IMG/VR virus record: IMGVR_UViG_3300032215_000682
Coordinates: 51,637 to 115,636 of that record
Source: a virus
DNA: 64,000 nucleotides
Reading direction: 5' to 3' (one strand)
The first letter of the stretch is position 1, and every line of letters begins with the position of its first letter. A model generated the notes under the pieces. The model ran no database searches, was not told the origin of the DNA, and saw nothing but the letters and a program-made list of their open reading frames with translations. Below, piece after piece: positions 29,527 through 49,226 of the stretch. The position numbers and the translations under genes are program-made.

Positions 29527-31620
29527 TTATTTTATTCCTGTAAAAGGAGAATTATTATATTTTCTTTTATTTTCACTAAAAGGATTATTTATTTTTTGAC
29601 TTTCCATTCCTATAAATGGTGTTGTGATATGTCTTTTAGGAATATAAGTTTCACTTTTTCCAATAGAAGCTACATCAAAATTTGTTAATGGTGTTGCTAT
29701 ATCTAAGTATCTTGCTGCTGTTAAACAATGCCCAAAACCAATGATTCTATCATAGTTTCCATCATGCACACCTTTATTACTAGAAGATTTACCCTTATAT
29801 TCTATCATTTCTTCAAGAAGCATTACATCTGGAATTCTACAACATCCCATTTTTATTACTTCTTCCCCATCTTTATCATACATGTATATTTCTTCTTTGG
29901 TGTATTCCACCATAATATTCATGTAATATTTTTGATTAACTGTTGTAGCAGCAAGTCCTTTATTTCTTTTAGCAAATGTTAGAGGATTTATTTGTTTAGC
30001 AAGTTCTTGGGATTCTAATAGAAGATGATCTTTATTTTTTAAATAAAAATATTGTATAAGAGTTTTATCTTCATTCTCTGGAAGTCCTAGAGCATTATAA
30101 TATTCACATACATCTACACAAAGTCTATGAAAATCTTTCACTTCTTTACATCTTCCTGTAAAAGAACAAACAACACTATTTTGATATTCTCCAAGAGGTG
30201 TATACATTCTTTTAAAAACATATATACTTCCTAAAGAGTTTATTTTATCACTAGATTCATTTTCATTATAAGGGTCAATTCCTACAACATAAGTTCCAAA
30301 TGGTAGTCCTTCTATTGGATGCTCATATATAACTACAGGAGCTTCTTTAATATCTTTAGGGCCAACAGGAAATTTTAATATTGGTTTTAAATTAGATTCT
30401 TTATATTCTACTTTATTATTTTCATCTCTATATAATTGTACACATAAAGGTTCATAGTGTTTTTCTAATTCATTTTTATGACCTTTAATAGCATCAACAG
30501 GAAAATTGTTATTAGAATCTGAAAGGAAAACATCATCTACTGTAAGTGGGTAGTACATCTTCCACTTGTGGTACATTGCTGTATCATTAGAATTTAAAAA
30601 TGCATCAAGTTCTTTTTTTATTGTTTCTCTAGCTAATACTTTATCAGATATTTTTATAGTGGTAATCCATAATTCTGAATCTTTAGGTATTTCTAATAGA
30701 ACACTAGTGTCAAGCAGGTGTTGAGCAAGTGTTGTTATATACTTACAATCACTTCTGTATTCTCCTGATAAAAATATACCTGTCACTCTACCATCTTCTT
30801 GTACTTCAGAAATTAGATTATGAGCATCTGGATTAAAGAATAATTGTTTAGCATCAAAAGCATTTTCAACATTACCTCCTGTACCCATTAGCATTGGAAT
30901 ACAAGTCCATCCAAATTCATTAAGCATTGCTGGTTTAGAACCTATAAATGCTGAAAGAAATTCTGCCTTACCTATTTCATCCCATATATTACATTTAAGT
31001 CTTGAAACACCAGCAGCCTTTTCTGTACTTTTACCTCCTGATGTATTTCTAATCACATATTGAGAATACACATCATTATCATTATTCTTTCTTTTAACTC
31101 CAAGTAACACCCTCTCATCACTCCAATCTCTTGTAATCCTTGGTATTCTAAATGGTTTAGAACAATTTAATAGACCATAATCAAGAGAAGCTGTTAAGTT
31201 ATTAAGGTCATCTTTACTTGTTCCCATTAAAAGATTTTGACCTCCTTTAAATAATATACCAGATCTACCTGCATAAGAAGATTGTACTGTCGTCTTACTG
31301 AATTGTCTAAGGCCCATTATTCCTATACCTTTTCTTGTTCTTTCAGCTTCTAATAGAATGTCATTAAACTTTAATTCATTATCTCTAAAAGTAGGTGTAA
31401 TAGTAATGGGTACAGGTTCTCCCCAATCAGAAAGTTTAGAACCTTCTATCTTCCAATGATTAAGATGCCAATAAAGCCATCCTGACATTTGCCATCCATC
31501 AATATTAATTCCTCTCTCTACTTTTCTTCTTTCTTCATTCCAGAATTCTTTATATCCAACATCATCTGGATGCCAGGGAATTGTTTTCTCATCCATGTGG
31601 ATGAACATTTGTACATTCAT
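29527..31620 (-). CDS. terL: Terminase large subunit
   Basis: RQFSKT Walker A-like motif, DEIGK Walker B, GTGG, nuclease GIDPY and GNYDRI. Confidence 0.9.
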   Translation of the reverse strand: MNVQMFIHMDEKTIPWHPDDVGYKEFWNEERRKVERGINIDGWQMSGWLYWHLNHWKIEGSKLSDWGEPVPITITPTFRDNELKFNDILLEAERTRKGIGIMGLRQFSKTTVQSSYAGRSGILFKGGQNLLMGTSKDDLNNLTASLDYGLLNCSKPFRIPRITRDWSDERVLLGVKRKNNDNDVYSQYVIRNTSGGKSTEKAAGVSRLKCNIWDEIGKAEFLSAFIGSKPAMLNEFGWTCIPMLMGTGGNVENAFDAKQLFFNPDAHNLISEVQEDGRVTGIFLSGEYRSDCKYITTLAQHLLDTSVLLEIPKDSELWITTIKISDKVLARETIKKELDAFLNSNDTAMYHKWKMYYPLTVDDVFLSDSNNNFPVDAIKGHKNELEKHYEPLCVQLYRDENNKVEYKESNLKPILKFPVGPKDIKEAPVVIYEHPIEGLPFGTYVVGIDPYNENESSDKINSLGSIYVFKRMYTPLGEYQNSVVCSFTGRCKEVKDFHRLCVDVCEYYNALGLPENEDKTLIQYFYLKNKDHLLLESQELAKQINPLTFAKRNKGLAATTVNQKYYMNIMVEYTKEEIYMYDKDGEEVIKMGCCRIPDVMLLEEMIEYKGKSSSNKGVHDGNYDRIIGFGHCLTAARYLDIATPLTNFDVASIGKSETYIPKRHITTPFIGMESQKINNPFSENKRKYNNSPFTGIK

Positions 31621-35267: not shown

Positions 35268-35631
35268 GTTTTCGATTTATTTTTTTGTTCAAACTTTTTA
35301 AATTTAGTTTTACTACACACTGTAAATAATACATTTGTAAAACTAACATCATCTATTATAAAACCATCTTCTCCAAAATGTTCTTCTATAAAATTAGTAA
35401 GTTTTTCTTTTTAAATTTTTGTTAATCTTATTTGCATATCTATCGCAACTTTTCCTATATTGTATTTATGATTAGTTATTTTTTTAAATAAAAATTGTCC
35501 TATTCTTTTCATTTTAATATTTTATATATTTTCCATAATTTATTTTAGTAGTTTATATATCTTCCATCTAATAAAATTAGTCCATCCTTCTATTATTTCT
35601 TTTCTATGTTTCCAAATGTATATTATTCTTT

Positions 35632-35979
35632 TCATTTTTCTTCTTCATATTTATTTACTAAATCTAATAGATATTCCATAAACTTTTCTTTTGTTTTCTT
35701 ATCTATATCTTGTAAAGAATTCCAACACCAAACACAATCATAGTCTGTAGCTCTATCATAAACAAATTTACCTGCTATAGGAAATACTAAATAAACTCCA
35801 AAATCTTCATAAAAACTTTTTTGAAAAAGAAACACATCTTTTAATTGTCCTAAATCACTAAAAGTATTACTAATACTATCCTTAAAGTTATCAAATTCAG
35901 AATTATAAATAAGAGTATTATTTTGGAAATTATCCCAGTCTTTACTCTTTATATACTCACTTAATATTATTTCTTCCAT
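35632..35979 (-). CDS. Hypothetical protein
   Basis: 115-aa ORF. Confidence 0.55.
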   Translation of the reverse strand: MEEIILSEYIKSKDWDNFQNNTLIYNSEFDNFKDSISNTFSDLGQLKDVFLFQKSFYEDFGVYLVFPIAGKFVYDRATDYDCVWCWNSLQDIDKKTKEKFMEYLLDLVNKYEEEK

Positions 35980-44224: not shown

Positions 44225-44621
44225 GGGGGTGAGAAGAATAGATTAGATTGATTAGTTAAATAATTAAGCAAGTGAATGATATTTTACACTTTAAAAATTA
44301 ATATCAAACAATAAATGCAACAGAATTGTCTGCCTTTACCTTTGATGATGCAATGAATTTTGTATCTCAGGATGAGCTTGTAGAAGCTGCTATATAAGAA
44401 ATTATATTGCTGTTCTTGGAAACAGAAGTCTACAAATATAGCTTTTCTTATTTACTTAGAAATAAGATGGTGGAGCACAATCAATATTTGGTTGTCCTAT
44501 TTTTATTAATTTAGTAAAATTAATTATTTGGAATACTAGAATAGTATTATCCTAAGCTTATAATAAATTATTTAATAAACCTTTTTAAGACCTGGCTAGC
44601 ATTATGCCAGCACCTCCACCA
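44225..44621 (+). ncRNA. ssrA: tmRNA (transfer-messenger RNA)
   Basis: GGGGGTG/CACCTCC-A-CCA acceptor with a G3.U pair. Helix TTAAATAATT/AATTATTTAA. Resume context ATAAAT-GCA and tag ORF 44317-44397. 397 nt. Confidence 0.88.
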
Positions 44622-44689
44622 CACATTATATTTTAAGTAGAAGTTAATGCTCAAGCATTAAGGTTTTGGTGCAAATCCAGATAGTGTGT
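44622..44689 (+). ncRNA. tRNA-like RNA with non-canonical anticodon arm
   Basis: CACATTA/TAGTGTG acceptor, mini D arm TTTT-AAGT-AGAA, TTAATG-CTCAAG-CATTAA, T arm TTTGG-TGCAAAT-CCAGA. Confidence 0.55.
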
Positions 44690-44719
44690 CTATTAACAAA
44701 ATAAAATTTAAACAAAAAC

Positions 44720-46617: not shown

Positions 46618-47256
46618 ATGAAACAAAAAATAATTGGAATTCCTGCTTATTCTGGTAAGGAAATCTTTGGATGTGGATTGGGCTACTTGGATTGGATTAG
46701 CCAATTTGGTATTCCAAGACTTATATTTCCTAAAGAAGAATTTGTTAAAGGATTGGATATGTTATTTCTCCCAGGAGGCCCTGATCTTAATCCCACTTCA
46801 TACAATGCTATACCTGAATTCTACACAAACTCTCCATGTATTCATAGGCAATTCTTTTATGATATAAGACTTAAAAATTATATTGGAAAGGTTCCTATAT
46901 TTGGAACTTGCCTTGGGTTTCAAATGTTGAATTGTTTTTTTTCAGGAAAACTTGAGCAGGATATTTCTCACTACGTGGACAAAGATGGATGTCATGAAAT
47001 TTATGACATGGAGTATAAATTAATAAAAGCACTACCAAAAGATAAAGAAGGAATTAAAGTGACAAGTTCACATCATCAAGGATTTAAAATAAATAATCTT
47101 GGAGAAAATCTAACACCATTAGCTCAAAGTGCAGAAGGATATATAGAAAGAATGGAGAATACACATTTAAATATAGCAGGAGTGCAAAGTCACCCTGAAA
47201 GATTAGAAGATGAATGGAGTGTAAATAAAATTAATGAATTTTTAAAAATTAAATAA
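46618..47256 (+). CDS. Class I glutamine amidotransferase / peptidase C26
   Basis: LPGGPD, PIFGTCLGFQ (nucleophile Cys), S.HHQG and GVQSHPE (His-Glu). Confidence 0.88.
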   Translation: MKQKIIGIPAYSGKEIFGCGLGYLDWISQFGIPRLIFPKEEFVKGLDMLFLPGGPDLNPTSYNAIPEFYTNSPCIHRQFFYDIRLKNYIGKVPIFGTCLGFQMLNCFFSGKLEQDISHYVDKDGCHEIYDMEYKLIKALPKDKEGIKVTSSHHQGFKINNLGENLTPLAQSAEGYIERMENTHLNIAGVQSHPERLEDEWSVNKINEFLKIK

Positions 47257-47513
47257 TGCTTACAATAATAATTAATAATGATATATGGAAAATGCCTGAT
47301 GATGAATCTTGGCATATATTTTTAATAAAAGTTGCTCCAACTGAATCACAAGTTGTATTTATGAGATGTGCTTGTAATAATAAATCTGTACATTGTACAT
47401 CATCTGAAAAACTAGCACAAGAAATAGTGCAAGAAATTACAAAAGGTATAATGGAAGGAAAAACTATTATAAATATTCAAACAAAAGAGAATTTAATTGT
47501 TGAAACTAAATAA
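47256..47513 (+). CDS. Hypothetical protein
   Basis: 85 aa, translationally coupled. Confidence 0.55.
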   Translation: MLTIIINNDIWKMPDDESWHIFLIKVAPTESQVVFMRCACNNKSVHCTSSEKLAQEIVQEITKGIMEGKTIINIQTKENLIVETK

Positions 47514-47519
47514 TAATAA

Positions 47520-48362
47520 ATGATAAGAACTGTTATTAAATACACAGATAATAAAATATTATTAAATGATGCTGAAGTGTTTGAAACTTCTAAAGAATTA
47601 TTTCCTGGTATATATGAAATAGAAACTGACACTTATGGGGCTTTTAAAAATTTTGTATCATTAGAAATACCTAAAGCATTTCCATTGATGCCCTCAGATG
47701 AATTACAAAACTTAGAAGACTATATAAATAATTTTTTATCTGATGATTATGAAAATTTGTGTAAAGAAGCAAGAATTTTAAAAAAATCAGGTATATTATT
47801 ATATGGTAAGCAAGGAATTGGTAAATCTAATTATATTAATTATATTATAAATAAGTGTCTAGAAGAAAAACAAGCATGTATTTTTAGTTGCACTGGTTTA
47901 AGAGATGTACAACAAGTAAATGATAAGTTAAAGGAATTAAGAAATATACAAAATACTTTGTTTGTAGTGTTATTAGAAGAAATGGATGAAATATTAAACA
48001 GCAATGCAAATCCAGAAGGTACATTAAAAAATTTTATGGATGGTATTAATAGTGTTGATAATTGTTTATTTTTAGCTACAACTAATTATATAGATAAAAT
48101 ACCAAAATCTTTAACTGAAAGACCTTCTAGATTTAAGAAAGTGTTGGAAATAAAACCAACAGAAAATATAGAAGAGTTAAAAAAATGGCTTACTATTACA
48201 TATAAAAATTTTATACCAGATTTAAGTAATGAAGAATGTGAACATTTACATGATATGTGTATAAATAAATCTATTGATGAAATTAAACATATTATTATAG
48301 ATTATAAAATGGGAATTGAAAATTTAGAAAAACCAAAAAAACTAGGATTTAAAAAACAATAA
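47520..48362 (+). CDS. AAA+ ATPase
   Basis: GILLYGKQGIGKS, LEEMD, ATTN and RPSRF. Confidence 0.85.
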   Translation: MIRTVIKYTDNKILLNDAEVFETSKELFPGIYEIETDTYGAFKNFVSLEIPKAFPLMPSDELQNLEDYINNFLSDDYENLCKEARILKKSGILLYGKQGIGKSNYINYIINKCLEEKQACIFSCTGLRDVQQVNDKLKELRNIQNTLFVVLLEEMDEILNSNANPEGTLKNFMDGINSVDNCLFLATTNYIDKIPKSLTERPSRFKKVLEIKPTENIEELKKWLTITYKNFIPDLSNEECEHLHDMCINKSIDEIKHIIIDYKMGIENLEKPKKLGFKKQ

Positions 48363-48365
48363 TAT

Positions 48366-49226
48366 ATGATAAAAATAACTAATATAGGATGTGATCCCGA
48401 ATTTTTCATTCAATCTCAAGGAAAACATATTTGTGCTATTCCATATTTAGGAGGAGCATGTAAAGAACTTCTATTTCCAATGATGGAAAATAACATAATT
48501 AAAGAAGGATTTTTCTTTTGTCATGATAGAGCTTCTGTTGAATTTAATGTACCTCCTACAATGGATTTTAAGACATTTAGAGATCAATTAAATTATGCTA
48601 AACAGTTTATATTGCATCTGGTTAATAATGACTACAATGGCCCTAAAATTGAAATCTCAGAGGATGCTAGTGCTTTCTTTAATTGGGATGAACTAACAAA
48701 TCCTAAAGCTTTAGAAGTGGGATGTCATCCATCATGGAATGCTTGGACTAATTCTCAGAATAAATTAACAAAAGATTTAGAAAAATCTAATTTTCAGTGT
48801 GCGGCTTTTCACTGGCACCTTGAATGTGATTTTGGTTGTGATGATAAATTTCATCTCATGATGGCTTGTATTAGAGCATTTGACTTATTTTTAGGTGTTC
48901 CTTCTGTAATGATGGATAATGACTTATGGAGGAAAGATTCAGGCTATGGACTTGCAGGTCAATTTAGAGAAATGTTAGATAAAAACAGATTTGAATATCG
49001 TGTTTTGTCTAATTTTATTCTATTTGATGATGTAGCATTAGAATTTATGTGGAATCAAATGTTTAAAGCTATTGATTATGTTAATGAATTTGATATAATT
49101 ACAGGTGAATTAGGAGATAGAATACAAAAATGTATTAACACTTCTGATAAAATATTAGCTTATGAAATTTGTAAAGAGTTTAAAATTGAAATTCCTGTAA
49201 ATGAAAAAGTATTAACTAATGAATAA
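48366..49226 (+). CDS. phiEco32-like COOH-NH2 ligase type 2
   Basis: IGCDPEFF, D...VEFN.PP, GC.P..NAW, H.H, YG.AG.FR and EYRVLSNF. Confidence 0.8.
   Translation: MIKITNIGCDPEFFIQSQGKHICAIPYLGGACKELLFPMMENNIIKEGFFFCHDRASVEFNVPPTMDFKTFRDQLNYAKQFILHLVNNDYNGPKIEISEDASAFFNWDELTNPKALEVGCHPSWNAWTNSQNKLTKDLEKSNFQCAAFHWHLECDFGCDDKFHLMMACIRAFDLFLGVPSVMMDNDLWRKDSGYGLAGQFREMLDKNRFEYRVLSNFILFDDVALEFMWNQMFKAIDYVNEFDIITGELGDRIQKCINTSDKILAYEICKEFKIEIPVNEKVLTNE

Follow-up and report, generated by a model that had tools for sequence, protein, structure and literature searches.

A divergent tmRNA homolog with a degenerate elbow and a long acidic tag frame in a crAss-like phage

We identified a 397-nt element in a viral genome (positions 44225–44621, plus strand, of the window, meaning the whole 64,000-nt stretch of DNA analyzed here) that is almost certainly a real tmRNA homolog. 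Its assignment as a complete one-piece tmRNA (ssrA) gene rests on an end-to-end alignment to the Rfam model RF00023, on the pattern formed by its two ends, and on homologs in other phages. We refer to this element as W and to the tmRNAs with which it was compared as R, V, S, T, U, and X. Our preferred reading, to which we assign a probability of roughly 0.7 on the basis of sequence comparison, is that W is a working tmRNA that depends on the SmpB of its host and adds a tag without an LAA end.

The IMG/VR record from which the window comes is 115,636 bp long and has direct terminal repeats; the window covers its right-hand 64 kb. The portal, large terminase, 1,966-aa virion protein, and family-A-like DNA polymerase of this genome match phage protein families typical of crAss-like phages, and the phage is a member of that group. 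Its genome has a G+C content of 26.9% and is fully coding with the standard code. The terminase matches those of crAss-like phages of Bacteroides, Flavobacterium, and Cellulophaga. Because the best deposited or cultured match of the large terminase (window 29527–31620, minus strand) has only 38% identity and comes from a Leptolyngbya (cyanobacterial) phage, Lbo-JY46, which ranks above the Bacteroidota crAss-like phages, the host of the W phage is uncertain. A search of Lbo-JY46, the closest cultured relative by terminase, found no tmRNA. We also considered that TGA might be read as sense by a UCA tRNA, causing read-through that needs rescue, and rejected this idea since TGA is the stop codon of 14 of 66 long ORFs. 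As a side observation, a tRNA of the R phage (L121:1173–1250, plus strand, the same as L233:11849–11926) is labeled SeC by ARAGORN, has the anticodon UCA, and is a possible opal suppressor.

The elements of W follow the canonical order: an acceptor with G3.U, a D-loop analogue, helix 2, pseudoknot 1 (PK1), an A-rich leader, an ORF without a start codon, a stop hairpin, three 3' hairpins, a T arm, and ACCA. The presence of this full layout argues that W is a genuine tmRNA. Its features, and the element that abuts it, are as follows.

44225–44621, plus strand: whole one-piece tmRNA (ssrA) gene W
44225–44231, plus strand: 5' strand of the acceptor, GGGGGUG, which holds G3 and pairs with 44611–44617 (GC GC GU GC GC UA GC)
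44232–44240, plus strand: D-loop analogue AGAAGAAUA, without the canonical GG
44241–44269, plus strand: 5' strand of helix 2 (base 44241–44245, H2c 44255–44265, H2d 44265–44269), which pairs with 44556–44590
44270–44306, plus strand: PK1, with stem S1 AAGUG/CACUU (5 bp) and stem S2 UGAUAU/AUAUCA (6 bp), just upstream of the resume codon
44317–44397, plus strand: tag frame, with resume codon GCA, 26 codons, and stop codon TAA at 44395–44397
44389–44410, plus strand: helix 5 hairpin with the stop codon, GCUAUAUAA (GAAA) UUAUAUUGC, 8 of 9 pairs standard
44447–44552, plus strand: region in the position of PK2–PK4, resolved here as three conserved hairpins (44447–44466, 44477–44495, and 44530–44552) with covarying stems
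44556–44590, plus strand: 3' strand of helix 2, with a conserved AAGAC at its end
44592–44610, plus strand: T arm, with a 5-bp stem CUGGC/GCCAG and a 9-nt loop UAGCAUUAU at 44597–44605
44611–44621, plus strand: 3' strand of the acceptor, CACCUCC, followed by the discriminator A and an encoded CCA (44618–44621)
44622–44690, plus strand: degenerate 69-nt tRNA-like element starting right after the CCA, reported by ARAGORN with -ps80 only, as 'tRNA-???' with a 2-nt 'anticodon'

An earlier note, made from the letters of this DNA, had described the tmRNA frame, and its description holds: the G3.U acceptor, discriminator A, and encoded CCA are present as stated, the 26-aa acidic tag ORF at 44317–44397 is confirmed (six acidic and no basic residues), and the T stem CTGGC/GCCAG (44592–44596/44606–44610) does close a 9-nt loop. 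A 7-bp acceptor with G3.U70, a discriminator A, and a 3' CCA, whether encoded or added, characterizes W and all of its relatives. The G3.U pair is kept in 10 of the 10 relatives examined, and the CCA is not encoded in R (ACUU) or V (ACAA). The H2a pairs of W are GA AG UA UA AU, that is, a tandem G.A/A.G followed by Watson–Crick pairs, and H2c is 11 bp long.

With an ARAGORN negative and an Rfam score below threshold, standard tools alone leave the identity of W unsettled. The earlier note had looked to these two programs for confirmation, which neither supplied. ARAGORN called no tmRNA at W with default or strongly relaxed thresholds, and in the window it gives four tRNAs. Nothing was found at W at the Rfam gathering threshold of 47 bits; in E-value mode, model positions 1–374 of RF00023 align exactly to 44225–44621, with 13.7 bits against that cut-off. 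On the plus strand W reads GGGGGTGA...CACCTCCACCA. The combined pattern of its two ends has a single occurrence in the window and none across 100 shuffled sequences, and the fold of W has a z-score of −2.5.

Within our sequence comparisons, it is homology that settles the identity of W. Two related crAss-like phages share the element with compensatory changes, and all three copies link by sequence to S, a tmRNA that scores 76 bits; for these reasons we identify W as a tmRNA. The earlier identification of a phage tmRNA is thereby backed by homologs with compensatory changes and by a tag conserved as a peptide.

R comes from IMGVR_UViG_3300033120_000864, the phage whose polymerase (66% identity) and portal (70%) most resemble those of the W phage, and matches W collinearly. 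Its locus (L151:1468–1923) has the acceptor GGGGGUG/CACCUCC with G3.U, the T stem CACGC/GCGUG, a 6-nt loop GUCGCU, and a 50-codon frame; neither an Rfam match nor an ARAGORN call was obtained for it. V (L125:7427–7820, plus strand), which was found by scanning loci for a G3.U acceptor with an adjacent T arm, belongs to a more distant crAss-like relative whose polymerase is 37% and whose portal is 27–29% identical to those of the W phage. The V tag is 38 aa long (DKISSDQGSILDVKFCMENNMLKNTYKSPVQVSSLVEA) and its T-loop is AUCGUAC; ARAGORN made no call and Rfam gave no match at E≤1.

S (L219:12057–12468, minus strand; also L226 and L231) lies inside the replication module of a 58-kb viral contig and was found by a PK1 sequence scan. 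It matches the Rfam tmRNA model with 76 bits (E = 1.5e-29), and was missed by ARAGORN at every threshold tried, despite a canonical UUCGAAU T-loop and a GG D-loop. Its 38-aa tag ends in VAMAA, and of the nine positions at which its metagenome variants differ, one is a synonymous tag change. Scanning for the 3' module gave two further types, T (L234:6939–7283, minus strand; also L238 and L239) and U (L237:443–825, minus strand; also L240 and L241), both of them ARAGORN-detectable. T has a 33-aa basic tag (VKNTFSKVSNKVVDFANRVADIRIAPVAMRMAA) ending in RMAA and lies in a cluster of 11 tRNAs, and U has a tag of 17–21 aa, (GNTI)AKLSTLGLIRTEEVTVA, ending in VTVA. The T and U contigs are 13–49% complete by CheckV at 38–124 kb, which suggests that they come from very large phage genomes. 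No W-like portal was found on the S, T, and U contigs (CheckV 13–63% complete).

Other searches were less productive. The gene is missing from G003, a complete relative, and from four further related contigs. The W element gave a single chance 42-nt match by blastn against 50,697 phage records. Scanning viral contigs with the 3' 16-mer returned at least 120 chance matches and was uninformative, and the 59 matches to the hairpin-A motif were nearly all a conserved protein-coding motif, the sole real one being a known relative. The 380-aa downstream protein, used as a synteny probe, returned zero relatives. In one genome from each of 185,579 bacterial and archaeal species, the PK1 pattern gave six chance matches and no tmRNA, and so pointed to no donor lineage. 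In metagenomes the PK1 pattern returned near-identical S variants only.

Covariation was assessed with scripted pair tables (W, R, V, S, T, and U; the helix-2 comparison leaves out the U type) and rests on few sequences, with three found for the lineage with the degenerate elbow. Between W and R, we counted at least six both-sided compensatory changes and no disrupted pairs across the T stem, H2a, H2d, and PK1. Two pairs of the T stem are changed on both sides (CG UA GC GC CG in W, CG AU CG GC CG in R), as are one pair of H2a (A-U to G-C) and two pairs of H2d (UAAGC/GCUUA in W, UAGGA/UCCUA in R). Relative to S, T, and U, the acceptor has a both-sided change from U-A to C-G and the T stem is also changed on both sides; its pairs in S are CG CG GC AU GC. 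Every sequence compared keeps the tandem G.A/A.G on which helix 2 starts; in the third H2a pair, W and R have U-A where S and T have C-G.

Stem S1 of PK1 changes from A-U to G-C in the R and S types, and stem S2 differs by one G-U wobble between W and R. In V, stem S2 is GAGGCA/UGCCUC, with every pair different from W and every pair complementary, and the PK1 of the S type is nearly identical to those of W and R. The 3' hairpins keep their places between helix 5 and helix 2, with stems that are rebuilt. Hairpin A has the loop ACUUAG and stems that covary between W and R, and the rebuilt hairpin B has standard pairs throughout. The last one is shaped GGA-stem-UA-UCC; its inner stem is AUACUA/UAGUAU (W), GAGAU/AUCUC (R), or GAGC/GCUC (S), and an invariant UAUCCUAA follows the hairpin; the module made up of UAUCCUAA and the GGA-stem-UA-UCC hairpin is common to W and S.

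The tag frame behaves as a sequence that is translated without initiation, which is a hallmark of tmRNA. The W tag reads ATELSAFTFDDAMNFVSQDELVEAAI followed by a stop, has a net charge of −6, and ends in ...DELVEAAI. From the upstream stop (44299) to the GCA, the frame contains no ATG, GTG, or TTG. As in the E. coli tmRNA, W has U at −5 and A at −4 relative to its resume codon, and the proposed resume codon begins with G in all types. In R a hairpin stands directly before the stop codon, and in W the stop lies inside the hairpin.

The tags of W and R align with a z-score of 3.8, which was reached by 1 of 500 shuffles, and share TE-LS..T.DD...F and a C-terminal LVE. A C-terminal LVE(A) is common to W, R, and V, with V ending in ...LVEA and W in ...LVEAAI. 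Neither of the other frames is conserved between W and R: the peptides from the ATG-initiated one (13 and 16 residues) are unrelated, and stops fill the third. The alignment of the W and R tags, the shared LVE(A), the synonymous change in S, and the lack of conservation in the other frames all argue that the tag frame behaves as coding sequence. The tags of W and R are markedly acidic, and those of V, S, and T are not (net charges of −6 in W, −13 in R, −1 in V, −2 in S, and +4 in T). The W tag has no (Y/F)ALAA-type end, which is a property of most tmRNAs and not a requirement for membership.

W departs from a typical tmRNA at the elbow, where its T-loop differs from the 7-nt UUCRANY within an arm that is otherwise homologous and whose stem covaries. 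The three crAss-like copies have T-loops of 9 nt (UAGCAUUAU in W), 6 nt (GUCGCU in R), and 7 nt (AUCGUAC in V, where positions 54 and 58 have been exchanged to give A and U). The loop of S, T, and U is UUCGAAU or UUCGAAA, and with the unrelated X included the set is UUCGAAU/UUCGAAA/UUCAAUU. Because relatives outside the clade are canonical and all three crAss-like copies are non-canonical, the atypical T-loop is a derived, lineage-specific state and not a misreading. The GG of the D-loop is kept in S, T, and V (AUUGGAAUA, UAUGGUUUU, and AGAGUUGGCUAUU) and is missing in W (AGAAGAAUA) and R (UAUAUGUAUU). Alanyl-tRNA synthetase (AlaRS) needs the acceptor stem only, and EF-Tu and SmpB make their contacts with the T stem and the side of the elbow. 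Loss of the near-universal elbow nucleotides, with a 9-nt T-loop and a D-loop without GG, could impair SmpB binding, EF-Tu binding, or function on the ribosome. W, R, and V form a natural experiment: they retain the acceptor, T stem, base of helix 2, PK1, and tag frame but not the supposedly near-invariant T-loop/D-loop corner.

W is situated within a tRNA island (Leu, Asn, Arg, and His) at the start of the rightward, replication arm, 5.2 kb upstream of the DNA polymerase. V and R lie 2.2 kb and 12.5 kb upstream of the DNA polymerase, respectively, and R adjoins a tRNA-Arg gene. This tRNA-gene setting upstream of a DNA polymerase recurs in the annotated crAssphage cr273_1, which supports the view of W as a phage tmRNA. 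We rejected the possibility that W is the remnant of an integration site, as W is full length and no integrase is found among ten neighboring proteins (Pfam/PHROGs). The earlier note saw no smpB in the window, and its absence extends to the whole 115.6-kb record; a search with PF01668 found none in the W, R, and S phage records and matched the control genomes.

In the tRNA-like element at 44622–44690, a possible processing signal, the acceptor stem is 7 bp long, the T-loop reads UGCAAAU, and the anticodon arm consists of a long stem and a 4-nt loop; the z-score of its fold is only −1.4. A Bacteroidota-type promoter motif is not enriched (4 matches versus 5.1 expected), and a scan beside W for sigma-70 promoters and terminators returned nothing above chance. 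Farther downstream (window 46618–49226, plus strand), genes for a peptidase C26/class-I GATase, a classical AAA ATPase, and a phiEco32-like COOH-NH2 ligase are adjacent and look like part of a peptide or amide-ligase pathway. The best solved matches of the AAA ATPase are VCP-like proteins and BCS1. A link between the W tmRNA and the AAA ATPase was considered and dropped: the AAA gene near the tmRNA of R shares only 27% core identity.

If W is a working tmRNA, its RNA would be excised from a longer transcript, with the 5' end cut by RNase P and the 3' end probably produced by RNase P cleavage at the abutting tRNA-like element, leaving the encoded CCA. Host AlaRS would charge the RNA through G3.U, and host SmpB and EF-Tu would then carry it to ribosomes stalled on broken mRNAs; the phage itself lacks an smpB gene. 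Translation would resume at GCA (44317) and append (A)TELSAFTFDDAMNFVSQDELVEAAI to the stalled product. The likely benefit would be that ribosomes are kept free during infection while host mRNA is destroyed. Because the tag ends in ...LVEAAI rather than ...LAA, whatever handles W-tagged products is probably not the usual ClpX recognition of a terminal Ala-Ala, or else that recognition works on them less efficiently. The earlier note likewise suggested that the phage may use host SmpB while altering the fate of tagged proteins, or may compete with the host tmRNA. A functional W RNA would show how much of the tRNA elbow trans-translation can spare, and W also offers a long non-LAA tag.

The same pattern of conservation could be read as that of a decoy or inhibitor. 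W would then bind AlaRS and SmpB, act as a poor ribosome substrate, titrate SmpB, and shut down host trans-translation. Such a role would fit the degenerate elbow of W, R, and V alongside the strict conservation of their acceptor stem, T stem, and helix 2 G.A base. It also has a precedent in mycobacteriophage DS6A, which has little beyond the tRNA-like domain; a molecule of this kind strongly inhibits tmRNA, perhaps by titrating SmpB (PMC4131195). If W RNA does block host rescue, it would represent a phage weapon against ribosome rescue. We nonetheless consider this role unlikely: a decoy needs no PK1, resume-codon context, peptide-conserved frame, or helix 5 stop, and all of these are kept through heavy divergence.

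It is also rather doubtful, as a larger proposal built on the same sequences, that the lineage of W, R, and V has remodeled both ends of trans-translation, with an elbow that no longer resembles a tRNA and escapes host factors or uses a phage-encoded partner in place of host SmpB, and a tag that, with its acidic body and conserved LVE(A) end, serves as a phage-specific, non-ClpXP signal. A remodeled elbow might evade modification enzymes or elbow-directed anti-phage nucleases. A speculative candidate for the tag reader is the phage's own classical AAA+ ATPase, approximately 3 kb downstream.

We regard as improbable that W is a decaying relic, captured from a host or another phage, that drifts in an AT-rich genome, is non-functional, and has so far escaped deletion. 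The non-canonical T- and D-loops and the sub-threshold Rfam score would be expected of a relic, as would the loss of the encoded CCA in R and V and the patchy distribution among related phages (absent from G003 and four related contigs). Decay is harder to reconcile with both-sided changes that preserve helices, an invariant G3.U, a tag frame that is open for 26, 50, and 38 codons where random frames close quickly, and a C-terminal LVE(A) conserved across phages with 27–29% portal identity. The remaining reading, in which a tRNA-like frame encloses by chance a small ordinary protein gene or a structured RNA of another kind, could appeal to the ARAGORN negative, the sub-cut-off Rfam score, and the fold z-score of −2.5, but is very improbable and effectively refuted by the homolog series, given that no shuffle in 100 matches the ends, the frame has no start codon, homology to a 76-bit tmRNA is clear, and the architecture is conserved in ten related sequences.

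W resembles the canonical one-piece tmRNA (RF00023; E. coli tag (A)ANDENYALAA) in its G3.U, ACCA, helix 2 G.A base, PK1, U-5/A-4, and G-initial resume codon, and also in its helix 5 stop codon, 3' hairpins, and 5-bp T stem. It differs in having the 9-nt UAGCAUUAU in place of UUCRANY, a D-loop without GG, a 26-aa tag with a charge of −6 ending in AAI rather than LAA, an Rfam score of 13.7 bits (cut-off 47), and a location on a phage without smpB. Mycoplasma tmRNAs, whose tags are reportedly approximately 27 aa long and read by Lon (Gur and Sauer 2008), resemble W in having a long non-LAA tag and an AT-rich genome; unlike W, they belong to bacteria, their tRNA-like domain is canonical, and their tag protease is known.

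Among phages, S, T, and U share with W the UAUCCUAA module, the GGA-stem-UA-UCC hairpin, and long tags (38, 33, and up to 21 aa), and S also shares PK1; they differ from W in their canonical T-loops, GG D-loops, and tags ending in AMAA, RMAA, and VTVA. The tmRNA of mycobacteriophage Bxz1 (cluster C1) is, like W, phage-borne and located in a tRNA cluster, with a long acidic tag and a hydrophobic non-LAA tail; by ARAGORN, its tag is acidic, 25 aa long (ATDTDATVTDAEIEAFFAEEAAALV), and ends in ALV. Unlike W, the Bxz1 tmRNA is ARAGORN-detected, its phage type and host are unrelated, and the similarity of the two tags is at the level of composition-matched shuffles (z 0.36). The RefSeq-annotated tmRNA of crAssphage cr273_1 (NC_055904.1, Buhlduvirus, 35492–35861, the same as L250:10693–11062) has a 15-aa tag (GNINVVDYTGLQEAA) and adjoins tRNA-Met and tRNA-Leu. 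Like W, it belongs to a member of the Crassvirales, lies by tRNA genes upstream of the DNA polymerase, and has a non-LAA tag; unlike W, it is circularly permuted (two-piece), has a shorter tag, is ARAGORN-detected, and has no visible sequence relation to W.

The earlier note overrated the novelty of the element, which is preceded by the tmRNAs found by ARAGORN in 402 of 18,146 phage genomes (PMC9004378), the acidic tag of Bxz1, and the annotated crAssphage tmRNA. Known phage tmRNAs include those of Bxz1-like mycobacteriophages, Wildcat, and Bacillus phage G, and a TLD-only form in DS6A (PMC4131195), and in huge phages a tmRNA occurs together with SmpB (PMC7162821). In the literature that we searched, no paper took up the biology of tmRNA in crAss-like phages. 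There is already precedent for phage tmRNAs, for long acidic tags in phages, and for a crAssphage tmRNA, and W is an unusual variant whose distinctive points are its degenerate elbow, its invisibility to standard finders, and its acidic tag ending in LVEAAI. Because surveys use ARAGORN, which misses W, R, V, and the Rfam-accepted S, phage tmRNAs are under-counted. In a separate observation, a pattern scan turned up by chance a canonical one-piece tmRNA (X; L202:2238–2595, minus strand) with a 10-aa tag, DNYVEELQAA, on an 18-kb viral contig.
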